Source: a virus (taxonomy: Duplodnaviria > Heunggongvirae > Uroviricota > Caudoviricetes). Taken from it: 22,547 bases of DNA. The notes beneath the pieces are model-generated. The model saw nothing but the letters and a program-made list of their open reading frames with translations, was not told the DNA's origin and did no database searches. Positions 3,590-22,547 of this stretch are shown here, in pieces (position 1 is the first letter of the stretch; every line of letters begins with the position of its first letter). Location: IMG/VR virus record IMGVR_UViG_2648501787_000004, positions 1-22,547 of that record; one strand, 5' to 3'. The position numbers were made by a program, and so were the translations under genes.

Positions 3590-4237
3590 TCAGCGACCAA
3601 TCACCACAACCTGACCACCGTCCCCTTCGTCTGCCGTGCTGATCTCCTGAGAAACCACCCGCGACCCCACACGCATTTCACCGTACAGAACAGGCAAAAC
3701 ATTGCCCTGAGCAACCATGTTATCCAGTGAGGAGAAATAGGTGTTCTGTTTGCCGTTATCTGTACTGGCTGCCGTGGGCGTCCTGGCTTTCGGTGCCAGC
3801 ATCTGCGCCACACCGCCCAGGATCATACTGGCCCCTGCCGCATACATGCCCGATACAGCCGCGGCACCCAGCCAGCCCACAGGGTTCCACCATGCCACCG
3901 CAATCAACGCCGCCCCCAGCACCACCTGAAATACACCGCCACTTTTAGCTCCCGCCAGACGCGGCACGATATGGATCACGGCACCATTTGCCAGCGGCTC
4001 ATTAAGACGGGCAGATAATTCGGTTTCACCTGCATCACGCCCGGCAATGCGCACCTGATACCAGCCGTCATTCAGCTTCTGACGAAACGCCGGGAGCTGT
4101 GTGGCCAGCGCCCGGATGGCTTCGGCCCCCGTTTTCACACGAAGGTCGATGCGGCGGCCAAATCGTTGCAAATCCCCGTAAAGGCAGATGCGTGCCATGC
4201 CCGGTGACGCCAGAGGGAGTGTGTGCGTCGCTGCCAT
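3590..4237 (-). CDS. I: Tail assembly protein I
   Basis: 215-aa ORF; N terminus MAATHTLPLASPGMARICLYGDLQRFGRRIDL... and C terminus ...NGKQNTYFSSLDNMVAQGNVLPVLYGEMRVGSRVVSQEISTADEGDGGQVVVIGR match my recollection of lambda I; overlaps the 3' end of K as in lambda. Confidence 0.9.
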   Translation of the reverse strand: MAATHTLPLASPGMARICLYGDLQRFGRRIDLRVKTGAEAIRALATQLPAFRQKLNDGWYQVRIAGRDAGETELSARLNEPLANGAVIHIVPRLAGAKSGGVFQVVLGAALIAVAWWNPVGWLGAAAVSGMYAAGASMILGGVAQMLAPKARTPTAASTDNGKQNTYFSSLDNMVAQGNVLPVLYGEMRVGSRVVSQEISTADEGDGGQVVVIGR

Positions 4238-5920: not shown

Positions 5921-8900
5921 TACCGATATGCTCCACTTAACCGACCACCATCACGGGCCTGCTGTTGCATAAAGTCCGCTGCCGCTTTTTTCCCAAGGTC
6001 ATAAACCACCTTCAGGGCAGCCGGACCTATCTGCCCGTTCGTGCCATCGTTATTGATCTCGATGTTGTACTGCGGGGCAAACATCGCCATACCTGAACCA
6101 CCAATATCCGCCACAACCCCCAGCTTACCGTCAGCACCACGACGCAGTGGCAGAATGGCTTCAGGTCCAGCTTCCCCCATCACACCCGCGCCTTTTGCAA
6201 AAGCAAAAAACGTCGGACGGTTAACCACCGTGCCACTGTAGCGACTCAAATCAGCAGACTGATAAACACCGCCATCCGCATTTGGTGTCACACTGGCAGC
6301 TGCTGCACTCCCCCAGCCAAACGCCGAACCAATCCCCTTCACTGCCTGCATCATGACCATCTGCGACATGATTTTTGCCAGATCAGAAAGGAGCGAGGCG
6401 GTAAAAGATCTGAAGTTCAGTTTTCCGGTGGTACAGAACGTCGCCAGTGCATTACCTGCACTGTTAAATGCCGCTGTAAACATCTGCTCAGCGGTACCTG
6501 CTGCGTTATCCGCACTCTCTGTAAAATTCTGAAACGCCCGCATGGCACCGTTTTTCCAGTCTGCCTGCATCAGTTCCTGTTCCTGCCAGTAGCGTCTGTT
6601 TTCGTTCAGTTGCCGGTTAAGGCTGTCTGTCAGCATCTGCTCAGCATTCCGGTATTCATCTGTGCCGTATGTTCCTTTCTGTTTACTGTCACGCTCCAGT
6701 TGCTCCATCTGCTGCTGATATTTTTGCTGCAGGCTGAACTGTGTCTGGTACCGCTGACGCTGCTTATCTCCCATTCCTGTTGTGGCGATATCCAGGTCAT
6801 GTTGCTGACGCAGAGCCCGTTCCTCTTCCGCCAGCTGGCTGGCAAGCTGAATGGATTTTTTCTTCAGGTCATTCAGCGCCGTCTGCTTCTGCAGCTCCTG
6901 CTGTTTTGCATCCAGCAGCGTCAGTGCCTGAATCAGCTCATCCTTATGCGCCAGCACGCTTTTTTCATCTGCTGTCAGCTTTTTACCCGCCAGGTCACTG
7001 ATACGCTGCTGCAGGGCCAGAAGCTGCTTATGCGCCTCTGTCATTTTTTCCGTGGTCAGTCCCGCGGACTGTCTGGCGGCGGCGATCTGCCCCTCCACCT
7101 GCGCCTGCTGCTGACTGTACTGCAACAGCAACCGGGTGGCTTCATCATTGCGGTTTTCAGATGTTTTTTTCTTAATGGCTTTCTCGTAACGTTCATTTTC
7201 ACGTTGTATCGCCGCATCCCTGACAGCCTGATCGGCGTACTGCATGGCATTAATACGCGCAATTTCACGCTGATGTCGTGCTGCTTCCGTTTCATTCATC
7301 CGGTTCAGTGCAGCATTTTCAGCATTACGGCGTTTCTGTTGCTCCTGATAATTCCGCTCTGCCTGCTCTTTTGCATCCTGCAAATCCTTCTGGCGTTTTT
7401 TCTCCTGAAGATCGTTAAGACGCTGCTGATCGTATTCAACCTGAGAAGATGATGCCGTCCAGGGGAGTCTTTTCGCCCGCGACACTTTCTCCTGTAAAGC
7501 GGCAATCTGTTCATCCAGCGAGTCTTCACGACCAATATTCATGGCCGCATCCCAGAAACGACTCCATAAATCAGACAGATACTTCAGCGTACTGCCCAGC
7601 GCATTGAGGTTATTATCAATATCCGCAGTACGCCGACCGGTTTCCTCTGCCAGTGCAGACATGGCTATCCGTGCCGCATCACTGGACCGCCCCTGATCCC
7701 CAAGGACGCGTATCTGCTCAAGCTGAGTGGCAGTAAGAAAATGCAGCTCATTGTCCAGAGCCTTCGCGGCATTTACAGGATCATCCTTCAGCCGCTTAAA
7801 CTGATTTATGGTATCGCTGACCGACTGGCCAACCGATCGCTCCATCTTTGCGGCAGCTCTCGCCACCATACCGATATCGTTTCCACGAAATGCACCACTC
7901 CCCACCACCTGAGCCAGCGCACCGGCTGCAGCATGTTGCGTGATACCATTCCCGGAAATAGCACGACTGAGCGTCCACAGCTGCCCGGCAGTGACTCCGG
8001 CATAATGCCCCGTCAGTGACAGCTGGCGGTTAAATTCTTCCCCCTCCTTCTGACCGTCATACCAGGCTTTACCCAGACCATAGACGGCCGCGGCAATACC
8101 GCCAATAACCCCGCCCAGCATCATGCCTTTCGGTGACATCAATGTGTCTATCCACCCGGCACGGTTAGCCAGCGTTATTCCGGATCCCCTCAGCGCACCT
8201 AAATTTCCGCGGGCCAGTTCACCTATCAGAACGCCTATCTCCTGACGGGCCGCTGCACTTTTCAGACCCAGCGAATGCGTGGCTTTTCCTGCCTGCTCCA
8301 TTTTGCGGATATACACTTCTGCAGCACTGCTTACCCCCAGCTGGGCAGCCTTAGCACGAAGCAACTCAGAAGAAGAAAGATTCTGGCGGGTTGCCTGCTC
8401 TTTAAGCTGACGGATAAACGCCACTTTCTGTCGGGTAGCCTCTTCCTCAGCCTGTGTAAGAACACGGGTTTTCGCCGTAACCTCAGAAATCAGCGCCAGA
8501 TAATCCTGCTGACCAATCCCGCCACTGTTTCTGGCCTGTCGGATCTGCTGCTGAATACGCTGTAATTCCTGCAGCCCCGCACTGGCCTGTTTCACACTGT
8601 CAATCTGACGATAAAACGCAGCAGCCGCTTTATCCTGAGCCTCCGCCAGAGCCATGGCCTGCGCCTGTTCCTCGCGCATTTTCTGGCTCAGCGCCTCCAT
8701 GCGCTGGCGGGTTTTCTCCACCTCGCGGGCCATGCGTTCATGAGCCTGTGCGTTCTTCTCCACCGTCTGCGCATGGACGGATGCGGCTGTTGCAGCCGAA
8801 GAAGCCGCCTGCGTTGTCTGCCGGGCGGCCTGAGTCTGACGCTCCATAAAACGCTGCATACGGGCAGAAGACCGTTCTGCATCGCTGGCTGCACCATTCA

Positions 8901-12173: not shown

Positions 12174-14132
12174 TTACGCCGTACATTTCACCAGACCGCG
12201 GTGATCAACTGGCGCGACACCGGCGTCAATACGCACTTTCGTTGTCACGCCATCCACACTGAAGCCCTCCATCTGATCAATATATGGCGTATCCACACCG
12301 TTGAGATAAGCCACTTCAATCGTATCGGAGCCTTTTGACGCAGCCAGGTAGAAGGTGGTCTGGCTGTTATCATCAAGACGAGGCTCTGCAATAACGGTCG
12401 CAAAATCTTTCACCGGGTTAATAATACCGGCGTTAATGTCAGCCCCCTTGACACTTGAGGAGCGAATGACCTGGTTAGCAACAGACTCCATCGCCGTCGG
12501 TACCAGTACGAACGCAGGACGAATATTCAGATGACGCTCCCCCTCTTTCTGAACGCGCATCAACTGGCGGGCTTTATCCAGCGATGCCACGTCCATTGCA
12601 GCGCTCTCCAGTACGTTTGCATGTTTCGCTTTATCGAACAGACTTACATTATCTGTGGAGATTTTCGGGTTAGACGTCAGAATGGCATAAACCAGATCGG
12701 CAATAGTGGATTTCGCCGCACGGCCCAGCTTCATCGGGACATCGGTCAGCATATTCAGATCATCATTGATAATGGCCTGACGGGTGATACTGAACAGCTC
12801 GCCATAGGTCGCCAGTGCAATAGTGGCCTGTTTATCTCCGGTGGTGACGTATTTATATTCCGCCCCTTCACGCACCTGACGCAGAGCACTGAAGCCCCCC
12901 ATACCCACACGATGGGCAATTTTAAAATCAGACAACTGACCTTTCCGCGTCCACTGTTCATAGGTTTCAGGGGCATCTTCCCAGCCCTGCAGAATGGCTT
13001 TGTTCGCAACATCCAGCAGAATATTACCGAAGTCAGACGTACTGTGTGTGAACGCCGCACCGACCATCTGCATCGGGTTATAACTGGAAATCCCAATACC
13101 CCGTTCAGTCAGTGACATACGGGCATATTCACGCAGGGTCATCCCGTTGTAGACATTATCACGTTCGGTTTTTTCAAATCCGGCACGCGCCATCAGCGCC
13201 TGGCGAATCCCGTCCCCCACAAAATTACCGTTACCGGCATAAATATGAGCCGGGGTATTTTTATTGGATGGCGTGGACTCGCGCCCCATCTCGTTCAACA
13301 GCTTTTCGCGGGCCTGCTCCAGCGAACATTCAGGATCGGCAAGACACTGAGCCTGCAGCGTCTGATAACGCCCGCCAAACATGGCAAACAGATCATTAAT
13401 ACCGTTTACACGCGCTTTTTGCTCTGCCAGTACCTGCGCACGGATGCTGTTTTCATCCACCACGGGTGCTGCTGCCTGCACTGGCGTCCGGGAGGCTGCA
13501 GGTTCATCATCCTGTACGCGTGGAGCACTGTTGCGTGGCGGAGTAATCATGTTTCGAATGGATTCCGGCATCTTTTTAAATTCCTCTGTACGTTTTGACT
13601 GAATACATGCCATTGCCTTAACGGCTGGCGTCACCTGATCAGCAAATCCATGTGCCAGACATTCGGCACCGGACATCCAGGTCTCATCCGCCAGCATGGC
13701 AGCAATTTCATCGGTGGTTTTCCCGGTTTTCTGTGCATAAGCGGGTAACAGAACCGCCTCAACCTTATCGAGCAGGTCGGCATAGGTGCGCATGTCCTCC
13801 GCATCACCGCCCGTAAAGCCAAATGGTTTATGAATCATCATGAAGGTGTTTTCCGGCATAATGACCGGGTTTCCCACCATCGCAATGACCGACGCCATTG
13901 ACGCCGCCACACCGTCGACATAAACGGTAATGGACGCACCATGTGTTTTCAGTGCATTAAAAATGGCGATGCCTTCAAAGACATCGCCACCCGGTGAATT
14001 GATATGGAGATTAATGTGGGTGATATCGCCCAGTGCATTCAGATCACTGATAAACTGCTTCGCTGTAACACCCCAGAAACCAATCTCGTCATAAATATAA
14101 ATATCCGCGTCACTCTGGTGACCAGCCTGCAT
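12174..14132 (-). CDS. Prohead protease / scaffold / major capsid fusion protein (copy 1)
   Basis: Track ORF 12174-14393 extends into the portal gene; the likely start is MQAGHQSDADIYIYDEIG (ATG 14132-14130), 14 nt after the portal stop. N-terminal ClpP/S49-like protease region (HINLHINSPGGDVFEG...VDGVAASMASV), C-terminal region with capsid-like character; ~652 aa. Confidence 0.85.
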   Translation of the reverse strand: MQAGHQSDADIYIYDEIGFWGVTAKQFISDLNALGDITHINLHINSPGGDVFEGIAIFNALKTHGASITVYVDGVAASMASVIAMVGNPVIMPENTFMMIHKPFGFTGGDAEDMRTYADLLDKVEAVLLPAYAQKTGKTTDEIAAMLADETWMSGAECLAHGFADQVTPAVKAMACIQSKRTEEFKKMPESIRNMITPPRNSAPRVQDDEPAASRTPVQAAAPVVDENSIRAQVLAEQKARVNGINDLFAMFGGRYQTLQAQCLADPECSLEQAREKLLNEMGRESTPSNKNTPAHIYAGNGNFVGDGIRQALMARAGFEKTERDNVYNGMTLREYARMSLTERGIGISSYNPMQMVGAAFTHSTSDFGNILLDVANKAILQGWEDAPETYEQWTRKGQLSDFKIAHRVGMGGFSALRQVREGAEYKYVTTGDKQATIALATYGELFSITRQAIINDDLNMLTDVPMKLGRAAKSTIADLVYAILTSNPKISTDNVSLFDKAKHANVLESAAMDVASLDKARQLMRVQKEGERHLNIRPAFVLVPTAMESVANQVIRSSSVKGADINAGIINPVKDFATVIAEPRLDDNSQTTFYLAASKGSDTIEVAYLNGVDTPYIDQMEGFSVDGVTTKVRIDAGVAPVDHRGLVKCTA

Positions 14133-14145
14133 CCTGAACCAGGAA

Positions 14146-15654
14146 TTATTCTTCGGACTGGTCGTCGGTGTGCTGCGGCTCCTGTCGTTTCGTTGCGGCA
14201 CTGCTGCCTCCTTTATCACTGGCCGGATCGGTATCAAATACCAGATCCAGCTTGCGGTTTTCATCAATTTCGGCCTTGCGCCGACGTTTGACATCATCCG
14301 GATTACGACCACCAGCACGTACCCAGTCTGATTCTGTCGCCGCTCCACCACGAATCTGGATTTTCCAGGCCTCAGCCTCCTTAACAGGGTCAATCCACGG
14401 CATCACCGGTCCGGAATACACCGCGGTATACAGTGAAGAACGGTCAAGATCGCGGGGTAGCCTGATAACACCGGATGCCACAGCCTGTTTCAGCCAGGCA
14501 CGATACATCGGGCGGGTGACGGCACCAATAAACCAGTCCTGCAGGATCAGGTAGCCATCTGTGGATTCAACCAGCTCCTGACGCTGGGCGCTGTAAGTGC
14601 CGTTATAGTTGCGTGCCGTACTGGAAAAACTCAGACGACTGCCCGCCGCCACGGCACGCAACTGACCATTACGAAAAGTTTCAAGGTTAGGATTGGGACG
14701 ATCCGACTTCACCATTCCGATTTCTTCGCCGGGTTTCAGATCGTCGTAAATAATGCCTGGCTGAATGGTAAGCTCGCGTTCATTCTCCTTGCTGCCATTA
14801 CCATCCGGTTCATAGCTCTGCCCGTCGCCTTTCCGGATGTACATCCCCAGAGCAGCGGCGACCCTTGCTGCAGTCAGCTCAGAATCTTCATACTCTTTCA
14901 GGGCACTGAGGCGGATCAGCACACCGGACAACAAAGACGTCCCGCGCATCTGGTGCAGACGGCGAACAAATTTAAGATGCAGCATTCGCTCTGCATCCAC
15001 TTCTTTGGTTTCCATCTGCCGCCAGGATACGGGACGACTTTTATACACCAGATATTTTTCGGGACGCCCCCAGTCATCAACAAACACGCCCTGATTCAGC
15101 CTGTTGCTCTCATCACTGGTCATGGGAATAAAGTCTGGCTCGAGCGCCTCCAGCCAGAAATGAACACCGGCAGAAGGCGTCAGGTTGTTTATGCGCCCGG
15201 AAACCATCTGGGCAAACACCTCACCATCGCGCAGCCAGGTACGCAACATCAGACGTTCCAGCATCGGACGGGTAAACTGCCCGGTGACTTCCGGGCTGAC
15301 AGACCATTCACTCCATCGGGTGCGTATCTCCGCTGCCAGATCACGGGCAATGGCCCCATTGCGTAATACCGGATGTGGCTCGACAATAATCCCGTTTTTC
15401 CCCACCACCCGTTCTTCCAGCTTGTCAAATACACCAATAACCAGATCGTGGTTGTTATCAAGGTAACGGGCCTGCTCACGTAACGACACGGCCCCGTACT
15501 GGCTTAACTGGTCGGCAGTTCGGTTTTCCCGCCGGGCTTTGTGTGTCCGCGTCGTTTTTACGGCCTCATAAGCCTGGATCACCGCACGGGAACGCAGCCT
15601 TGCCGCTTTCCATCCTGGTGAAAAAACGCCAATCACATCATCAAGAATTGCCAT
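14146..15654 (-). CDS. Portal protein
   Basis: Track ORF 14146-15726; the likely start is MAILDDVIGVF at ATG 15654-15652, overlapping the W stop by 1 nt (TGATG); ~500 aa, acidic C-terminal tail; position between W and the capsid gene. Confidence 0.85.
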   Translation of the reverse strand: MAILDDVIGVFSPGWKAARLRSRAVIQAYEAVKTTRTHKARRENRTADQLSQYGAVSLREQARYLDNNHDLVIGVFDKLEERVVGKNGIIVEPHPVLRNGAIARDLAAEIRTRWSEWSVSPEVTGQFTRPMLERLMLRTWLRDGEVFAQMVSGRINNLTPSAGVHFWLEALEPDFIPMTSDESNRLNQGVFVDDWGRPEKYLVYKSRPVSWRQMETKEVDAERMLHLKFVRRLHQMRGTSLLSGVLIRLSALKEYEDSELTAARVAAALGMYIRKGDGQSYEPDGNGSKENERELTIQPGIIYDDLKPGEEIGMVKSDRPNPNLETFRNGQLRAVAAGSRLSFSSTARNYNGTYSAQRQELVESTDGYLILQDWFIGAVTRPMYRAWLKQAVASGVIRLPRDLDRSSLYTAVYSGPVMPWIDPVKEAEAWKIQIRGGAATESDWVRAGGRNPDDVKRRRKAEIDENRKLDLVFDTDPASDKGGSSAATKRQEPQHTDDQSEE

Positions 15655-15872
15655 CAGAACCTCGCCAGCCGGTACCCGGGATGCCCCCGTCGTCGTGTAA
15701 TCAGAGCCGCAAGGCGGCGCTCCCACTCCTGCCGTCCCTGCCGGATCTCAGATAAGTTTTCCATGGTCATCTGCTGACCATTAAAGGTGACGGATTTTCC
15801 GTCCAGCACCGCCATTTCAGCTTCCGTATAACGCTGAATCATGGCTTCGATATCATTCTGGTTCATAACCAT
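15654..15872 (-). CDS. W: Head-tail joining / head completion protein, gpW-like
   Basis: 72 aa (or 70 from Met3); C-terminal RRRGHPGY resembles the lambda W C terminus (RRRGPAGFYV); placed between terminase large subunit and portal as in lambda. Confidence 0.6.
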   Translation of the reverse strand: MVMNQNDIEAMIQRYTEAEMAVLDGKSVTFNGQQMTMENLSEIRQGRQEWERRLAALITRRRGHPGYRLARF

Positions 15873-16975
15873 CCTCCGGAAGTCAGCCAGGGGTTAACAT
15901 CGTCAGTTACTGTTTTCTTCCGTTTTTGTTTTTTAACAGGCGTGGATACCGGTTCCGGTGAGGGTGACGGTTTGGTACTGTCCGGGACACACTCCAGCCA
16001 GGTTTCCCGGCTCGCCCATTCCGGTGCATCCGGCCAGCGGATCTTTTCGTATCCATGCAGAATGACCAGAGCCTCGGCATACACCATCAGGTCAAAAGCT
16101 TCGTTGGCACCGCGACCCGGCTTACTCCATTTCCCGTCACTGCTCCGCTCTTCATACGTCAGTTCGTCGTAAAACCAGCTCCCCAGCCAGTCAGGGAAAT
16201 GCACATAGCCGGGACCTGGAGAGTCACGCCATAACGCGTTATTCACCCGGTCTTTCAGGGCATCCGTCTGAAGAAGCCAGAGCGGCACATCACCTGCGGC
16301 CTGCGCCCGTCGGCCCGTTCGTCCGGTGTTATCAGGGAATGTACGGGTGATCAGTTTTGCGCGCCGGATGCTGTCGCCCTTAAACAAGTAAATACGTTTA
16401 CCAAGGCCATCACGACGGCAACGACGCCAGAATTTATAGGCATTATCAGTGACCCCGTCTTCACCGCCGGAATCCACCGCCATTGCCATCAGTCGCATTT
16501 GTTGAGAAGGATCGGAGGCCAGCGGCCAGCTTTTATGAAAAACATCCGTCAGCAGGACATCCCAGTCTTCCGGATAGCTGGCCGGATCAATTCGCTGGCT
16601 CTCCCCGTCGCTGTCACCGCGCAATGACTGCGTGATGTTGTAACGATCAATAATCCAGCGTTCGCCACGGCTGCCATAGCCCGTTACCTGAACCACAAAA
16701 CGGCGATGACGTCCCGCCTGCACATCAACTGTCGCCACCAGGAAATTAACGCCATCCGGCACACTGCGGGAAGGAACTGGCTCTGCCCGCTGCTCAAGCA
16801 GTTCACTTTTTCGTTGCTCCATGCTGGCACGGGGAAGATAAGGTAATCCCCAGTCGGTATTGATAACCGTCTTGAGTGTTTCTTCACTTCCGGTTGTCTC
16901 GTATTCCTGTTCTGCAGTAAGCAGTTTGTAAACGAGTTGCGAGAGTGTCTGGTAAGCAGCTGCCGGACCCTCCAT
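15863..16975 (-). pseudogene. A: Terminase large subunit, C-terminal (nuclease) domain only; N-terminal ATPase domain absent
   Basis: 370-aa ORF resembling roughly the C-terminal half of lambda gpA (e.g. VATVDVQ..., WDSKKRRNEALDCFVYA-like region ...GANEAFDLMVYAEAL). Upstream in frame there are only 11 unrelated codons before a stop (17009-17011), and the sequence above 16980 is AT-rich non-coding DNA. Confidence 0.75.
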
Positions 16976-16979
16976 CCAG

Positions 16980-17440
16980 GAAGAAGTAAATAAAAGGTAA
17001 CTAAATGATTATAAGGTACTATTGAGTTATGCCCCCTACAACATAGTCCCAGATTTAGTACCTGCTTAAGCGATAAAAAAGCCAAAAAGGAAGCAATATT
17101 AATTATTGCCGCTATGCATGATCACAATGACAAATCAGAGGCGGAATTCCGCTCTCGGAACTCACATATGAGAAACGATATTTCTTCCACCGATACCCTT
17201 TATTTGGGTATCGCGAGTAAGCCCCAAAATCTGGGTGTTACTCTTACTACCCAAACTACGGGTAGTTTCCGTAGTTTCATAGTCGAGTTGCAGATCTGCA
17301 ACTCGCCACCAGTTGCTAAGTGCATTTTTGCACTTTCGATAATATCAACCAGTTACCGCCGTAAGTGCTCCGGCTTCCTCCACTGGTAAGTATTTTTCGC
17401 GCTCTCCCTCCGTTGTTGAGAACGGCGACGGTATGCCAGC
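16980..17440. other. AT-rich, palindrome-rich non-coding segment replacing the middle of the terminase large subunit gene
   Basis: Visibly AT-rich compared with flanking genes; contains the perfect 12-bp palindrome GCGGAATTCCGC (17141-17152), hairpin CGATACCC-n7-GGGTATCG (17191-17213), inverted repeat AAACTACGG-n7-CCGTAGTTT (~17252-17276) and a perfect 20-bp palindrome GAGTTGCAGATCTGCAACTC (17285-17304). No ORF with recognisable similarity. Confidence 0.6.
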
Positions 17441-17640
17441 AACTCAAGAACTCTGGTTCGTATGTTGCGCATATCAACGCCGTTAAGCTCAATACCGTCA
17501 CGGCGCATCACCTCAGCCACCACACGCGCGTAATTTTCAGCGGTGACTGTATCCGGCTGCGCGGCCTGTTCGTCAGCCAACTGGCTGATTCCACCAGCAC
17601 AGCGGATTAATCGCAGTATTTCAGATTCGGTCATTATCAT
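17353..17640 (-). pseudogene. Short ORF translationally coupled to the small terminase gene; probably the N-terminal remnant of the large terminase gene
   Basis: Its ATG overlaps the Nu1-like stop by 4 nt (17637-17640), the position where the large terminase gene normally starts; the last ~30 codons are Arg/Gln-rich and run into the AT-rich segment, suggesting read-through into non-native sequence. Homology to the gpA N terminus is weak. Confidence 0.35.
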
Positions 17641-18122
17641 GCCTGTTTTGCGACCTCATTCACTACGTCATTTTTTACCATCCGGCTGATAATCTGATTA
17701 CGCAAATCGTCAATAATTGACTGCACTCTGTTTACTGCCATCGGTTTAAGCCCGGCATCACGTGCCAGAATATTGGGGAGTTTTGCCAGTTCCTCGCTTA
17801 CGATTTCCCCCCATATAGCCATCTCTTTTCGCACATCATCGGCGGGTATGAGTTGCGCCGTTTCCTGTTCGAACTTGAGGCGCTCACGTTCGGACTGATA
17901 CCAGGCCTTACGGTCATGTGGCTCCATTTCTTCCAGTGATGCCGGAACGGGAAGATCAAGAAAACAGGTCAGAATGTCAGTCACCCGATAGAGTTTTAGC
18001 TTGTCATGCCCTCCGGCTGGCTGGATGTTTTTCAGCCTTGCCGCCGCAGTCTGACGACATATTCCCGCTATCGCCGCCAGTTGATTAATGTTCAGCATCA
18101 GATTTTTCAGTTCTCGATCCAT
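17637..18122 (-). CDS. Terminase small subunit, Nu1-like
   Basis: Track ORF 17637-18209; the likely start is MDRELKNLMLNINQLAAIAGICRQTAAARL (ATG 18122-18120, GGAG 7 nt upstream). N-terminal helix-turn-helix followed by a charged coiled region (ERERLKFEQETAQL), laid out like lambda Nu1; first gene after a cos-like region. Confidence 0.65.
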   Translation of the reverse strand: MDRELKNLMLNINQLAAIAGICRQTAAARLKNIQPAGGHDKLKLYRVTDILTCFLDLPVPASLEEMEPHDRKAWYQSERERLKFEQETAQLIPADDVRKEMAIWGEIVSEELAKLPNILARDAGLKPMAVNRVQSIIDDLRNQIISRMVKNDVVNEVAKQA

Positions 18123-18289
18123 ACCCGCTCCAGAATGTTTTAAACATGCATCTTGCGAACAACTTTCAGAAGAGGTCAAAAAATGCGCTATATGTTGAGC
18201 ATAAAACAAGCAAAATTAACATGCCAAAAATAAAAACACTTAAAATTCAATATCATAGAAAGATGATGATGACGAATGAAAATGCAAAA
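18123..18289. promoter_or_regulatory. cosB-like AT-rich region with repeated TGCAT-containing motifs between the cos candidate and the small terminase start
   Basis: Minus strand: ...tttttGCATtttcattcgtcat...tttttggCATGttaattttgcttgttttatgc...caagaTGCATGtttaaaac...; contains TTCGTCAT and TGTTTTTATTT, which I recall from lambda cosB. Possible terminase small subunit or IHF binding sites. Confidence 0.35.
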
Positions 18290-18370
18290 ACTAGCCTTTT
18301 TCCGCGCCGCTCCCGCCTCGCGGCAGGCCACCTCACCGGGAGGACCCACCCAAAAAAGGCGACTGTCACT
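18290..18370. promoter_or_regulatory. Candidate cos site (cosQ/cosN-like GC-rich element)
   Basis: Minus strand reads GGGTCCTCCCGGTGAGGTGGCCTGCCGCGAGGCGGGAGCGGCGCGG; the GGGTCCT..CCGGTGA stretch resembles my recollection of the lambda right-end flank (GGGTCCTTTCCGGTGATCC), and the element sits ~170-250 bp upstream of the Nu1-like start. The exact nick positions cannot be assigned. Confidence 0.4.
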
Positions 18371-18432
18371 ATTGTTTATGCTCCATGAGCGACAAAACCG
18401 CCCGCAGGCGGTTTCACATAAAACATTTTGCA

Positions 18433-19074
18433 TCAGCGACCAATCACCACAACCTGACCACCGTCACCTTCGTCTGCCGTGCTGATCTCCTGAGAAACCA
18501 CCCGCGACCCCACACGCATTTCACCGTACAGAACAGGCACAACATTGCCCTGGGCAACCATGTTATCCAGAGAGGAGAAATAGGTGTTCTGCTTACCGTT
18601 ATCCGTGGTGCTGGCTGTTGCTGTGCTGGCTTTCGGTGCCAGCATCTGTGCAACACCACCAAGTGTCATCGCCGCCCCCATTGAAAAGAGAATGTCACTG
18701 AAAGCGATACTGATTCCTGGCATCCAGATTGCCGTAGCAATCAGCGCCGCACCAAGCACCGCCTGAAACACGCCGCCACTTTTGGCACCAGCCAGACGCG
18801 GTACGATGTGGATCACGGCACCATTTTCCAGCGGTTCATTAAGACGGGCTGATAATTCGTTTTCGCCTGTATCACGCCCGGCAATACGCACCTGATACCA
18901 ACCATCGCTCAGTTTCTGACGAAACGCTGGGATCTGCATGGCCAGCGCCCGGATGGCTTCGGCCCCCGTTTTCACATGAAGATCGATGCGGCGGCCAAAT
19001 CGTTGTAAATCCCCGTAAAGGCAGATGCGTGCCATGCCCGGTGACGCCAGAGGGAGTGTGTGCGTCGCTGCCAT
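18433..19074 (-). CDS. I: Tail assembly protein I, second copy (mosaic allele)
   Basis: 213 aa; the N-terminal ~110 aa and C-terminal ~70 aa are almost identical to the I protein at 3590-4237, while the central hydrophobic segment differs (IATAIWMPGISIAFSDILFSMGAAMT versus IAVAWWNPVGWLGAAAVSGMYAAGASMI). Confidence 0.85.
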   Translation of the reverse strand: MAATHTLPLASPGMARICLYGDLQRFGRRIDLHVKTGAEAIRALAMQIPAFRQKLSDGWYQVRIAGRDTGENELSARLNEPLENGAVIHIVPRLAGAKSGGVFQAVLGAALIATAIWMPGISIAFSDILFSMGAAMTLGGVAQMLAPKASTATASTTDNGKQNTYFSSLDNMVAQGNVVPVLYGEMRVGSRVVSQEISTADEGDGGQVVVIGR

Positions 19075-19133
19075 TTGTCGGTATACCTCTCTCGTTTGCT
19101 CAGTTGTTCAGGAATATGGTGCGGCAGCTCGCC
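18972..19133 (-). pseudogene. 3'-terminal remnant of a K gene (truncated at the duplication boundary)
   Basis: The sequence upstream of I copy 2 matches the K/I overlap of copy 1 only up to ~19133, after which it diverges; no K-like N-terminal coding sequence follows. Lower boundary inferred by offset from copy 1. Confidence 0.45.
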
Positions 19134-19163
19134 GCCCCACGTGTTCAAAGTACCGCCTTGTTG

Positions 19164-21077
19164 TCATGCTCCATTCGATTTCAGCAATCCACGATAATCG
19201 AGGGCCGCGACACCTGCATCTATGCGCACCTTCCAGGCGACACCATCAACAGTAAAGCCCACCTGCTCCTCAAGATATGGCGTATCCATACCATCAAGAT
19301 AAGCGACTTCTATTGTGTCCATCCCCTTAGCTGCGGCTACATACCATTCCTTGCTATTGGCCTTATCAAGACGTGGCTCAACAATTACTTCTGCCATATC
19401 TTTCACAACGTTAATGATGCCGGGGTTCTGATTGATAGTGCCCTCATCACCAACCGGAAAGACTGATGACGATGACAGAATGGCGCGACGCGCGGCAGAT
19501 TCCAGCGCGGCAGGGACCAGAACAAAAGCAGGGGTAATATTCAGTGAGTCGCCGTTAGCATCCTCCTGGAGGCGCATCAGCTTACGGGCTTCATCAAGCC
19601 CCACCATGTCCATATCCTTCGCAATAAGATTTTTATGATCGGCATGGAATAACGCTTTACCATCCGTAAACTTGCCGTTGCTGGTTAACAGGAGATAAAC
19701 CAGATTGCCAACTGTTCTGGCGGCTGCGCGTCCCATTGCCATGGGGATTGTAGTTAACTGGGTCAGGTCATCGTTGATAATGGCCTGACGGGTAACGGAA
19801 AAAATATTCCCGTACGTGGCCAGCGCAATAGGTACACCTTTATCGCTGGTGGTGATGTATTTATATTCCGCACCTTCCGGTACTTTATCCAGCTTTGAAA
19901 AACCATTCAGACCAACGCGCTTTGCTTCATGAAAGTTTGAAAGCGAACCGGTACGCGTCCATTTCTGGAACGTTTCGCCGCTGTCCTGCCAGCCTTTCAG
20001 TACAGATTTTTCAGCCCCACCAGCCAGAATATGAGAAAAATCACTGCTGCTGTGTGTAAAAGCCGCATTAACAACCTGCGAGCGATTAATAAAACCACTC
20101 ACAGTGATACCACGATCAACCAGTGATGCCTGGGCCATTTCAAAAAGGCTCATCATCGCGTAAGGGTTGCCTCGTTCAGGGCGTTCATACCCAAGACGGG
20201 AATAAAGCCCCTGACGAATTGCATCACCTGTTATGTTTCCGTTTCCGGCATAGATATGAGGCGGGGTATTTTTATTGGATGGCGTGGACTCGCGCCCCAG
20301 CTCGTTCAACAGCTTTTCACGGGCCATTTCCGGTGTACATGATGCATCTTCCAGACACGCCATTTTGATCCCGTCGTAACGACTGCCGAACAGGCTAAAC
20401 ACTTCACTTATTCCATTGATGCGTTTCTGTTCATTACCAGCAATATTTGCCGCTCCCTGTGGCGGTGTAATCATTCCTTTAATGGTTTCCGGCATATGTA
20501 AAAAATCTCCTGTGCGCTTCGATTCAATTCGCGCCATTGCTCTGACGGATGGCAACAATTCATCAGCAAAACCGTGCTTAAGGCATTCTTTCCCGTCCAT
20601 CCAGGTTTCATCTTCCAGCATGGCGGTAATTTCCTGTGCTGATTTGCCCGTTTTTCTGGCATAAGCAGGGACTAACACGGTTTCCACCTTATCCAGCAAA
20701 TCAGCATAATCACGCATATCACCAGCATTTCCGCCAGAGATACCCCACGGCTTATGTATCATCATCATGGCGTTTTCCGGCATCACAACACGATCGCCAG
20801 CCATTGCGACCACCGAAGCCATTGAAGCCGCAACACCATCGATATAAACCGTAATGTCTGCCGGATGATTCCGTAGCAGGTTATAGATGGCGATGCCTTC
20901 AAACACATCACCACCTGGTGAATGGATCCTCAGATTGATATGTGAAACATCGCCAAGGGCTTTCAGGTCTTCCGCGAACTGCTTTGCAGTAACACCGAAG
21001 CCGCCAATCTCCTCATAGATAGATATATCCGCCGCTCCGCGAACATCCGCCGCCTTAATGGTGTACCAGCGATTCAT
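19164..21077 (-). CDS. Prohead protease / scaffold / major capsid fusion protein (copy 2, divergent)
   Basis: 637 aa, colinear with copy 1 over its whole length but clearly diverged (by eye roughly 60-70% identity); same ClpP/S49-like motifs (HINLRIHSPGGDVFEG, VDGVAASMASV). ATG 21077-21075 with a G-rich RBS; ATGA overlap with the upstream small ORF. Confidence 0.85.
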   Translation of the reverse strand: MNRWYTIKAADVRGAADISIYEEIGGFGVTAKQFAEDLKALGDVSHINLRIHSPGGDVFEGIAIYNLLRNHPADITVYIDGVAASMASVVAMAGDRVVMPENAMMMIHKPWGISGGNAGDMRDYADLLDKVETVLVPAYARKTGKSAQEITAMLEDETWMDGKECLKHGFADELLPSVRAMARIESKRTGDFLHMPETIKGMITPPQGAANIAGNEQKRINGISEVFSLFGSRYDGIKMACLEDASCTPEMAREKLLNELGRESTPSNKNTPPHIYAGNGNITGDAIRQGLYSRLGYERPERGNPYAMMSLFEMAQASLVDRGITVSGFINRSQVVNAAFTHSSSDFSHILAGGAEKSVLKGWQDSGETFQKWTRTGSLSNFHEAKRVGLNGFSKLDKVPEGAEYKYITTSDKGVPIALATYGNIFSVTRQAIINDDLTQLTTIPMAMGRAAARTVGNLVYLLLTSNGKFTDGKALFHADHKNLIAKDMDMVGLDEARKLMRLQEDANGDSLNITPAFVLVPAALESAARRAILSSSSVFPVGDEGTINQNPGIINVVKDMAEVIVEPRLDKANSKEWYVAAAKGMDTIEVAYLDGMDTPYLEEQVGFTVDGVAWKVRIDAGVAALDYRGLLKSNGA

Positions 21078-21283
21078 TGTTCCCCCACCGATGCAAAACC
21101 ATTCTGATTAAGCCAGGTGTTTACGGCATGTCTGACAATCTGCGCCACACCTGGTAATGGTTGGTCAGGATGATGATTTATATGGTCGATCCTGTACTGC
21201 TTAAGGCGCATAACGGTCTGCGCATCCAGATGAACGGAACCACCTCTGGTATCACCTGTGTTCAGGTCATTAATACAACTCAC
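21074..21283 (-). CDS. Hypothetical small protein (69 aa), translationally coupled to capsid gene copy 2
   Basis: GTG start at 21283-21281 with GAGGAAG 6-7 nt upstream; stop overlaps the capsid-2 ATG (ATGA). No recognisable family from sequence alone. Confidence 0.45.
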   Translation of the reverse strand: MSCINDLNTGDTRGGSVHLDAQTVMRLKQYRIDHINHHPDQPLPGVAQIVRHAVNTWLNQNGFASVGEQ

Positions 21284-21385
21284 AGCAACTTCCTCTGACT
21301 GACTAAACTATGCACATTATTGATCGATAAAAGTGGTAAATAAACATATTTCTATCATAAAAACAGATTAATTAGATTCAGACAC

Positions 21386-21407
21386 AAAAAAGCCGGATTT
21401 CTCCGGC
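21386..21407 (-). terminator. Rho-independent terminator downstream of the primase gene and iteron array
   Basis: Minus strand: GCCGGA-gaaa-TCCGGC stem-loop (21392-21407) followed by TTTTTT (21386-21391). Confidence 0.65.
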
Positions 21408-21537
21408 TTCTGTCACTCGTTGCTTAAAACGGTATGTTATCCCCGTACGGATCATCATTCCCCGCCTGTTGTTTTGGTGTGCTTCGCTGTCATAGGCTTT
21501 ATCTCACAGCAGTAAATTAAAATTTTTGCGTTTTAAC

Positions 21538-21766
21538 CCTTCACCTGTTCACCTTTTGATATTTTCTCTATTAATTCATAATGTTAAGGGGTGAACAGTT
21601 TCAAAAAAACTATTCACCAACTGTTCACCACTGTTCACCCTTGAAGCTCAATAAACAATCAAAAAGGTGAACAGTGAATAGTTTGGTGAACAGTTCATAA
21701 ATAACTGCTCACCCTATAATATACTGATATAAAAGATATTTATGACAGGGTGAACAGTGGTGAACA
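21538..21766. repeat. Iteron array of TGTTCACC octamers in both orientations (P4 ori/crr-type)
   Basis: Perfect TGTTCACC at 21546-21553, 21622-21629 and 21632-21639; perfect reverse-orientation GGTGAACA at 21590-21597, 21666-21673, 21685-21692, 21749-21756 and 21759-21766; one-mismatch variants at 21611-21618, 21674-21681 and 21706-21713. Embedded in AT-rich DNA directly downstream of the primase stop. Confidence 0.75.
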
Positions 21767-21780
21767 GTTATTCCATAAGT

Positions 21781-22547
21781 TTAATTTTTGCTATCGTCAT
21801 TAGTGACCGATACACATGATGGCATCCAGTCTTCTGATTCCTCCGTCAGTGTCACGTTTGAACGCAAACCGTGCTTCGTTTTCCGTTTCATATACTCCCT
21901 GCCATATTCCGCCATTGCCCCCGGCATATCTTTACCGAAGCGCGTCAGTGTTACAGGTTTACCAAACCCATGTGCCCTCATATAAGCCAGATAGGCATGA
22001 TAGAGATACCTGCGTGGGCTGAATGGCACAATTTCAGCATTACCCACTAACAGGCCATCACACATTACCGACGCCATGAGATAGCCGCAGAAGTCCACCA
22101 GCGAATCCCCCTCTCGCTTTATCGCCAGTGCTTCTTCAGATTTCTGCTGCTCATATAACAGGCGTCTGGCTTCGTCCTGGTTAGCAAACCGTGTAAGCAG
22201 ATGGCGAATCACTACCGCCAGCTCACCTTCTATTTTTTCCGCCAGCATTGGATCACGTTCGTTCTCCGGTACAACTTCCGAAAAATTGAATATCACCCGA
22301 CGACGTGAGATCCCCCCGCTGCGGTCACTGAATGACATGGCGTTATTGTTAACCGCCAGCACTACTGCCGGAATACGCGTTGAGTAGGGGGCTTTGTGTT
22401 TCGGGTCAATTGCCACCTTGTCACCGCCTGTAATAGCCTTAATCCCTGCTCCATCACCAGCGTAGCGGGTCATATCCGGCATGATAATCAGCGAAAAGCC
22501 AACCACTAACGCGCGTTCCCTTGCATCTTCCAGCGCCTTCATGCTTG
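21781..22547 (-). CDS. Phage/plasmid primase, P4 family, C-terminal region (partial; 5' end outside the window)
   Basis: Open frame from the window edge to the stop at 21781; contains ITGGDKVAI...RRRVIFNFSEVVPENERD...IEGELAVVIRHLL, which matches my recollection of the conserved C-terminal region of P4 alpha-type primases (D5_N/primase_Cterm). Direct adjacency to TGTTCACC iterons supports this. Confidence 0.7.
   Translation of the reverse strand, partial: SMKALEDARERALVVGFSLIIMPDMTRYAGDGAGIKAITGGDKVAIDPKHKAPYSTRIPAVVLAVNNNAMSFSDRSGGISRRRVIFNFSEVVPENERDPMLAEKIEGELAVVIRHLLTRFANQDEARRLLYEQQKSEEALAIKREGDSLVDFCGYLMASVMCDGLLVGNAEIVPFSPRRYLYHAYLAYMRAHGFGKPVTLTRFGKDMPGAMAEYGREYMKRKTKHGLRSNVTLTEESEDWMPSCVSVTNDDSKN

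Follow-up and report, generated by a model that had tools for sequence, protein, structure and literature searches.

The viral record IMGVR_UViG_2648501787_000004 (Caudoviricetes) is 22,547 nt long; we refer to the whole of it as the window and use its coordinates throughout. Every gene in it lies on the minus strand. We analysed the stretch from 18347 to 18123, where the original prediction had placed a cos-like packaging site, a GC-rich element next to a small-terminase gene, immediately downstream of a K/I tail-gene fragment. The stretch contains a cos site that probably belongs to a satellite of the phage-inducible chromosomal island (PICI) type, which is itself inserted in the large-terminase gene of a lambdoid helper prophage. 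The features at the site are as follows.

18347–18341, minus strand: cosQ-like heptamer GGGTCCT, identical to the lambda cosQ heptamer
18323–18302, minus strand: cosN-like 22-mer, CCGCG–AGGCGGGAGCGG–CGCGG
18318–18307, minus strand: predicted 12-nt 5′ cohesive end, placed by register with lambda
18123–18301 (179 nt), minus strand: AT-rich cosB-like spacer of 'type C', 32% GC
17637–18122, minus strand: gene for a TerS-like protein of 161 amino acids (DUF1441), with its ATG at 18122

A lambda-type cos site upstream of a DUF1441 gene

Read along the minus strand from 18347 to 18123, the cosQ-like heptamer is followed by the cosN-like 22-mer, the cosB-like spacer and the start codon of the gene for the small terminase subunit (TerS). 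GC content is 68% across 18290–18360 and 32% across 18123–18300. The stretch aligned with the cos–TerS upstream region of an intact phage, locus L056, at 95.6% identity over 225 nt (E = 1e-104). This phage has the normal order of lysozyme, Rz, cos, TerS and a 700-amino-acid gpA-type large terminase subunit (TerL). The same 225 nt were 77–79% identical to the corresponding regions of helper-type, mEp460 and type B phages (E ≤ 4e-46), so that identity to the cos regions of phages with a DUF1441 TerS and a gpA-type TerL ranges from 77 to 96%. The cos-like GC-rich element beside a small-terminase gene is therefore confirmed.

The site was compared across 90 phage and satellite loci, among them 41 copies of the satellite described below (the window, L001–L005 and 35 IMG/VR loci); a scan of GTDB genomes gave five loci in total, all of the phage type. 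The cosQ heptamer is conserved in all 41 satellite copies and in 41 of 50 phage copies. The usual form of cosN, CCACG–GGGCGGGAGCGG–CGCGG, is found in 36 of the 41 satellites and in the helper prophage of Escherichia coli strain A20, and most phages have this form with a T at position 12 of the cohesive end. Over the 90 loci cosN is nearly invariant, and the elements contacted by TerL are therefore common to this terminase family.

Alignment with known cos regions, which had been proposed as the check on the site, thus gave significant similarity to the mEp460 type, whereas the likeness to lambda itself is at the level of motifs only: a direct BLAST comparison with lambda returned just the cosQ segment (16 nt, E = 0.49). 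The shared motifs are the order cosQ–cosN–cosB–terS, the GGGTCCT heptamer, and 15 of 22 cosN positions (7 of 12 within the cohesive end) when the usual form of the 22-mer is compared. The distance from cosQ to the predicted top-strand nick is 29 nt here and 30 nt in lambda. The R sites expected from lambda were not found, and dyad symmetry, with 14 of 22 positions in this copy (P = 0.06) and 12 of 22 in the usual form, was rejected as evidence for cosN; it is not significant, even in lambda. Judged by its sequence, the stretch is a real lambda-type cos site, and it could plausibly be cut by a terminase of matching specificity.

A search for published or deposited physical ends of mEp460- or Ayreon-type phages found none, and the Ayreon record is opened at an arbitrary position. 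As a circumstantial observation, the linear record of mEp460_4F5 (L008/L009, LR595868.1) has its ends within cosN, 5 nt upstream of where the nick is predicted. Its cosN is 3 nt shorter than all other copies, probably an artefact of assembly at the ends.

The window copy differs from the usual form of cosN by two substitutions. At 18318, base 1 of the predicted cohesive end, G is replaced by A; this substitution is private to the window copy (1 of 41 satellites, 0 of 49 phage copies) and had no match in IMG/VR or JGI metagenomes. An A-to-G change lies three bases upstream, at 18321, and is also found in the sister copies L005 and L021. The private change may weaken nicking, may be neutral or may be a sequencing error. 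Its rarity within an otherwise almost invariant cosN would fit a site that is a satellite cos by descent but crippled in this copy, with the two substitutions blocking nicking, the satellite stranded in terL and the helper inactivated. We consider this improbable: the neighbouring open reading frames (ORFs), encoding TerS, a 95-amino-acid protein, gpI and a capsid fusion, are all intact; the two-fold symmetry is kept and slightly raised, and the strands would still give complementary ends; and the A-to-G change is tolerated in two sister copies, while the private one could be a sequencing error.

The cos site is part of a satellite inserted in terL

The region around the cos–TerS unit contains the following further features.

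15863–16979, minus strand: 3′ part of the helper terL (GpA nuclease domain; Pfam GpA_nuclease, E = 3e-84)
16967–16979, minus strand: attR core CTGGATGGAGGGT, 13 bp that are repeated identically at the two ends of the satellite
16980–17352, minus strand: right end of the satellite (attP arm), AT-rich (GC 0.42) and specific to the terL-type integrase
17353–17640, minus strand: ORF of 95 amino acids (phrog_1561; PHROG E = 3e-51), overlapping the TerS stop
19164–21077, minus strand: ClpP-protease/major-capsid fusion of 637 amino acids (Pfam CLP_protease and Phage_capsid_4)
21542–21773: iteron array, about ten copies of GGTGAACAGT in both orientations, directly downstream of the primase gene
21781–22542, minus strand: C-terminal part of a D5-type primase (Pfam Pox_D5; PHROG DNA primase)

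Positions 16980–22547 are the 3′ half (about 5.6 kb) of a PICI-type satellite, and the window ends inside its primase gene. Matches in complete E. coli genomes place the I–cos–TerS junction within a bounded element whose length, 10.4–10.8 kb, is constant across copies. In the closest complete genomes, those of E. coli strains C6 and A20 (97–99% identical to the window), the element begins with an integrase, a small helix-turn-helix gene (which had no Pfam AlpA match), BRO-N, YlcI, an Icd-like gene, DUF4222 and the D5-type primase. It continues with the ClpP/capsid fusion, a fragment of the tail gene K (K′), gpI, cos, the DUF1441 TerS and an ORF of 93–95 amino acids. SSB follows the primase in C6, and A20 has a small hypothetical ORF there instead. 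The integrase faces inward in the full elements L001–L005.

The boundaries of the element are defined by terL. The intact terL of mEp460_4F5 maps to both flanks of the satellite (L003 and L001) at 99% identity with an overlap of 13 nt, which indicates site-specific insertion with duplication of the core, so that excision would rebuild terL. The gene is split at about codon 331, the boundary between its ATPase and nuclease domains, and the satellite lies in the same orientation. The 3′ part of terL in the window is 98.9% identical to that of mEp460_4F5. In C6 and A20, the lysis genes, the helper's own cos, the helper TerS and codons 1 to about 331 of terL precede the element; the rest of terL, the portal gene and the remaining late genes come after it.

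The element also occurs elsewhere. The same late module (capsid fusion, K′I, cos, TerS and the 95-amino-acid ORF) is found with different integrases at the nfeF/tRNA-Ile and rcnR/thiM sites, and matches between the window and satellites at other integration sites end at about 17112–17139. The K′I–cos–TerS junction is present in at least 23 complete E. coli genomes. One member of the family, L002 (NZ_CP148328.1, pZ1323HEC0475-3), is recorded in RefSeq as a 'plasmid' and is a complete circular copy of 10,790 bp whose integrase shares 66% identity with the thiM-site type; this copy is probably an excised or replicating form of the satellite. The bounded element with its core duplication, the other integration sites, the circle and the iterons together identify a PICI-type satellite, with cos as its packaging site. 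We are fairly confident that 18347–18123 is the cos site of a helper-embedded satellite of about 10.4–10.8 kb, of the PICI type, in the gpA-type terL of an mEp460-like lambdoid prophage.

The capsid, tail (I) and TerS genes of the element are phage-derived, and RefSeq gives only generic phage products for it. These points would also suit a second, degraded lambdoid prophage, nested or in tandem, of which 16980–22547 is a remnant with its old cos. The constant size, the circular form, the PICI/P4-type backbone (the A20 primase is 87% identical to that of the PICI Eco567.11capE, discussed below) and the absence of TerL, portal and tail-shaft genes all argue against such a remnant, which we regard as very unlikely.

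The split terL is widespread. Its attR junction was found in at least 80 of 5,426 complete E. coli genomes (about 1.5%), including O121, O157 and O145 strains, and terL lies downstream in 9 of the 35 IMG/VR satellite copies. RefSeq calls the two halves of terL pseudogenes, and the stretch homologous to the terL part in the window is annotated as lacking its N terminus. Both this 'pseudogene' and the odd order of a tail gene beside cos are explained by an intact parasite in a probably functional prophage. With a frequency of about 1.5% in complete E. coli genomes, and with lineages of Shiga toxin-producing E. coli among its carriers, the arrangement bears on how the viability of prophages is called.

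A tail-gene cassette was inserted upstream of cos

The tail genes upstream of cos consist of the following parts.

18362–19152, minus strand: K′–I insertion of about 790 bp, with boundaries from comparison with L054 and L025
19133–18972, minus strand: fragment encoding the C terminus of K
19074–18433, minus strand: full-length gpI gene (Pfam Lambda_tail_I)
about 18415–18393: I/J-spacer hairpin, folding energy −19.2 kcal/mol

The segment 19134–18380 is 87% identical to the 3′ end of K, the I gene and the I/J spacer of the resident prophage (4297–3537), and the match ends just short of the J ribosome-binding site. The I–J hairpin reported upstream of cos is present in this segment. In 27 of the 41 satellite copies (27 of the 35 from IMG/VR), only 256–259 bp separate the stop codon of the capsid fusion from the TerS start; this interval has no K′–I, and holds a terminator hairpin followed directly by cosQ. 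K′–I is carried by 10 of the 41 copies, which form a subfamily, and its insertion point lies inside the terminator hairpin, about 14 bp (18361–18348) upstream of cosQ. By this comparison, a tail-gene cassette was inserted into the satellite, rather than a cos unit being moved into the tail region of a prophage. The original prediction was thus right that the juxtaposition arose by joining, and had the direction reversed: K′–I entered the spacer between the capsid gene and cos of a satellite.

The phage origin of K′–I, and its status as an insertion relative to most sister elements, might otherwise point to a one-off illegitimate or recombinational join within the prophage, a scar with a stray cos/terS unit beside K/I rather than a defined element. 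We give this almost no credence. At least 23 complete genomes share exactly this junction, which turns up in differing chromosomal contexts and on a circular molecule; the unit belongs to an element that has an integrase, carries the 13-bp core at both ends and interrupts terL cleanly; and in the closest genomes the prophage retains its own normal cos after the lysis genes. The idea of a rearranged prophage cos is accordingly not upheld, and cos–TerS is the native 3′ module of the satellite.

The window contains two full-length gpI genes, one in the satellite (18433–19074) and one in the helper (3590–4237), whose products share 85% amino acid identity. In L037 this satellite position is taken by another gpI allele (78% identity). 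The intact gpI ORF and the presence of two alleles at one site hint at selection. A connection between the satellite gpI and the inhibition of tail assembly by PICI Tai proteins (PMC11364771) was considered and rejected: the Tai genes are unrelated, adjoin pri and target J, and gpI and gpK are not mentioned in that report.

The satellite TerS is a mosaic matched to its cosB type

The gene that follows cos had been called Nu1-like, which holds for its position and function and not for its sequence. Its product matches DUF1441 (Pfam, E = 1.7e-36) and PHROG 141, 'terminase small subunit' (E = 1.5e-57), and DUF1441 homologues are annotated as the small terminase in mEp460, Ayreon, Gifsy-2 and Fels-1. 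BLAST found no similarity between the DUF1441 TerS and lambda Nu1 (E = 2.8), and Pfam gave DUF1441 only. An AlphaFold model (pLDDT 78) predicts a winged helix-turn-helix (beta-helix-helix-wing-helix) followed by long helices; the top Foldseek matches were MerR-type domains and, weakly, the DNA-binding domain of lambda TerS (6hn7_B; probability 0.85, E = 0.24).

Comparison of TerS proteins revealed two exchangeable modules. Amino acids 1–96 of the satellite TerS are identical to those of phage L056 (the type C winged-helix module). From about amino acid 97 to 161 it has a satellite-specific C-terminal half (...ADDVRKEMAIWGEIVSEELAKLPNILARDAGLKPMAVNRVQSIIDDLRNQIISRMVKNDVVNEVAKQA), replacing the phage-invariant half that ends in an acidic tail (...LRVTEAGADDEEELQQEE). 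Relative to the helper TerS, it is 67% identical over amino acids 1–150, with an unrelated tail. The breakpoint between the modules lies in an invariant central segment, RKAWYQSERERLKFEQETAQLIPA, which is identical in the phage and satellite versions. Besides type C, the satellite half is joined to DNA-binding modules of types A, C′ and D, so that it is conserved across at least four types, and the phage half occurs with types A, B, C and C′ (two-module mosaics compared: P0126, P0128, P0130, P0131, P0133 and P0135). The gene that follows differs in the same way: DUF1441 homologues with the phage half stand directly upstream of a gpA-type TerL, whereas the satellite half is followed by the 95-amino-acid ORF and no TerL.

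The type of the cosB-like spacer tracks the type of the TerS recognition helix in 90 of 90 loci. Three of the types are as follows.

Type A (mEp460 and resident-type helpers): recognition helix LSGVHRQTAAARLQNL; cosB segment ...CATCACCAC...
Type B (most IMG/VR phages): recognition helix LSGLHRQTVVARLKNI; cosB segment ...CACCATCATCTT
Type C (the window satellite and phage L056): recognition helix IAGICRQTAAARLKNI; cosB segment ...CATCATCATCTT

The type C cosB of the window is 95.6% identical to that of phage L056, compared with 79% to the type A helper. Differences between the satellite and the type A helper cluster at about 53–66 bp and about 95–145 bp from the cohesive end; the first cluster falls in the same region as R3 of lambda, at bp 50–65 (PMC9026076). 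The AT-rich region with TGCAT repeats described in the original prediction is borne out in composition and in part in its repeats. The motif GCAT[TG]TT occurs four times in the spacer, all on the coding strand, starting at 18285, 18224, 18186 and 18149 (P < 0.0002), and TGCAT occurs three times with both strands counted (P = 0.011 against shuffled sequence). Two of the four GCAT[TG]TT copies, however, are not conserved among sister elements.

The mosaic suggests, on the basis of these comparisons, that packaging of satellite DNA by the helper TerL would be directed by the satellite. Tentatively, the satellite may have made a hijacking device out of TerS, with a C-terminal module found only in satellites and front modules that pass freely between satellites and phages. 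Such a device would retarget or monopolise a gpA-type TerL and, since the satellite sits inside terL, be combined with gating of the helper terminase in cis, an arrangement distinct from Rpp and from the TerS and Ppi proteins of staphylococcal islands. If this is true, the satellite would decide if terminase is produced at all and also what DNA the enzyme packages. The helix VNRVQSIIDDL is conserved in the satellite TerS and could still contact TerL.

An alternative grants that cos is functional and takes the DUF1441 protein to act mainly in interference or as an adaptor, in the manner of Rpp or Ppi: it would assemble with the helper TerS by way of the invariant central segment, block recognition of the helper cosB and borrow the tail of the helper TerS for recruiting TerL. 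The satellite half lacks the acidic tail that is invariant in phages and that, by analogy with lambda Nu1, would bind TerL, and this absence argues for mixed oligomers with the helper TerS over direct recruitment of TerL. The central segment is identical in phage and satellite versions, and the gene stands where known E. coli PICIs have rpp, whose product needs the helper TerS to reach TerL (PMC6739421, PMC9026076). On the other hand, the protein is a full-length TerS homologue in which the putative TerL-contacting helix is conserved, and its sequence does not resemble Rpp chains from the PDB (a phmmer search of PDB sequences found nothing at E ≤ 1); the relevant Foldseek hit was the lambda TerS chain of 6hn7 and not Rpp. 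We judge an Rpp- or Ppi-like role to be rather unlikely, though a serious candidate.

A model for packaging of the satellite

Taking 18347–18123 as the cos site of a terL-embedded satellite, its cycle can be proposed as follows. Upon prophage induction, the satellite tyrosine integrase would excise the element at the 13-bp core, restoring the helper terL, and the circle would replicate from its own primase and origin. The iteron array is the probable origin, and its position agrees with the placement of PICI origins (PMC10111431). The helper TerL would nick the satellite cosN, with a 12-nt 5′ cohesive end expected, and the satellite TerS-like protein would bind its own type C cosB (the resident-type helper has type A), thereby directing packaging to satellite DNA. 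Packaging would run rightward from cosB–TerS round the circle to the capsid gene, K′I and cosQ. As the satellite carries only the ClpP–capsid fusion and TerS, at least TerL and the portal have to be borrowed. Capsids would come from the helper, from the satellite ClpP–capsid fusion, which is 57% identical to that of the helper (12174–14393), or from both, and tails from the helper. Given that the satellite has a capsid fusion of its own, satellite-built, mixed or small capsids are possible. Four copies of a 10.4-kb satellite amount to about 41.7 kb, compared with 42.9–44.5 kb for helper-type genomes (calculated from coordinates and record lengths), which fits multimer packaging as reported for EcCICFT073.

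Several observations weigh against parts of this account. The G-to-A substitution at 18318, private to this copy, may impair nicking, and the predicted nick positions and cohesive end depend on register with lambda. The 5′ half of the satellite and the helper's own cos lie outside the window, and their arrangement is taken from genomes 97–99% identical to it. The missing acidic tail makes recruitment of TerL by the satellite TerS uncertain. Some sister satellites (P0126 and others) share their DNA-binding type with typical helpers, so a change in specificity cannot be the sole role of the satellite TerS, and the match between cosB and helix type could be mere linkage of adjacent DNA. Finally, the R3–I1–R2–R1 architecture of lambda with its integration host factor (IHF) site is not recognisable in the satellite cosB, in which we found neither direct repeats of at least 8 nt nor, with one mismatch allowed, an IHF consensus.

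Relation to known satellites

The closest functional parallel is the cos1–rppA unit of EcCICFT073 (PMC6739421; PMC9026076). Both satellites have a cos site near the 3′ end in which cosQ and cosN are like those of the helper and cosB differs, both have a gene for a small winged-helix protein right after cos, in the place of terS in phages, and both presumably redirect the helper TerL to satellite DNA. However, the gene after cos encodes Rpp in EcCICFT073 and a DUF1441 homologue of the helper-family TerS here; the helper is of the lambda/phi80 type there and of the mEp460 (DUF1441–gpA) type here; and the cosB type of the window satellite also occurs in real phages such as L056. Compared with phage cos sites, that of the satellite is preceded by a capsid gene and K′/I instead of lysis genes.

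Helper-embedded PICIs were described by Tommasini, Mageeney and Williams in 2023 (PMC10111431), who catalogued 491 of them at 14 sites and showed excision of the prototype, Eco567.11capE (11capE), experimentally. Like these, the window satellite is inserted within a late gene of a lambdoid prophage, in the same orientation, and the gene is interrupted until excision. It shares with 11capE the backbone of YlcI, an Icd-like gene, DUF4222, primase and SSB, and a 'late zone' made up of genes captured from phages, a capsid gene among them. Membership in the published integrase clade was nevertheless rejected. The terL-site integrase shares only 25% identity with its counterpart in 11capE, the founder of the clade (those of the sister satellites at the thiM site and on the plasmid are 42–43% identical), and the doubled TGTATTGC motif, at −81 and +132 of attP, had no match within one mismatch in the reconstructed attP. 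The low integrase identity suggests convergence on late genes. In the accessible parts of the published material, the A-gene sites are Terminase_1:132 and Terminase_1:246; the terL site at about codon 331 with core CTGGATGGAGGGT was not found among the 14 sites, and neither 'GpA' nor this core was found in the text or supplementary files (PMC10111431). The window satellite extends helper-embedded satellites to a gpA-type terminase target. Its family carries a terS gene, which 11capE and EcCICFT073 lack.

In Staphylococcus aureus pathogenicity islands (SaPIs), a satellite-encoded TerS homologue, TerS-SP, pairs with the helper TerL to package satellite DNA; packaging is of the pac/headful kind, and a separate protein, Ppi, blocks the phage TerS. 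The window element differs in that it is of the cos type, belongs to a Gram-negative host and has a TerS DNA-binding module shared with phages. Capsid-forming PICIs (Alqurainy et al. 2023) also encode capsid and packaging genes and have a phrog_1561 gene at the 3′ end that is 82% identical, but they carry a full HK97-type set (capsid, S78 protease, portal, connectors, HNH, TerS and TerL), in contrast to the ClpP–capsid fusion and TerS of the window satellite.

Both helper-embedded PICIs and the cos sites of PICIs have been described before. Our literature search found no description of DUF1441 in satellites or of a gpA-type terL integration site, and the terL site, its integrase and the TerS mosaic appear to be undescribed. 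The matched module and cosB types (A, B, C, C′ and D), combined with a phage or a satellite C-terminal half, provide a panel for dissecting cos recognition and TerS–TerL interaction in a terminase family that has had no biochemical study so far.

Other features of the window

The 95-amino-acid ORF at the 3′ end of the satellite has 862 homologues. In the capsid-forming PICI-type loci L011–L015, whose packaging module is entirely different from that of the window satellite, its 82%-identical homologue is the last gene and overlaps TerL (7001–7294). It looks like a generic 3′-terminal PICI gene. Roles as a mimic of the TerL N terminus or as an Rpp- or Ppi-like protein were rejected, as no similarity was found to TerL, lambda gpA, TerS or PDB chains.

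An Rfam scan of the whole window gave no matches, and promoter and terminator hits in 17900–19300 were no more frequent than in shuffled sequence. In the right end of the satellite, an IHF-like site (AATCATTTAGTTA) lies at 16998–17010, about 20 bp from the attR core, and TTATCGCTT motifs are present in both attP arms (reconstructed from L003), where they are candidate arm-type sites for the terL-site integrase. The ClpP domains of the helper (13830–13841) and of the satellite (20754–20765) each contain a one-mismatch match to ATGATGATCCAT. This sequence is the core at C:CLP_protease:110, one of the published sites of helper-embedded PICIs (PMC10111431), which makes both genes potential targets of another satellite family.

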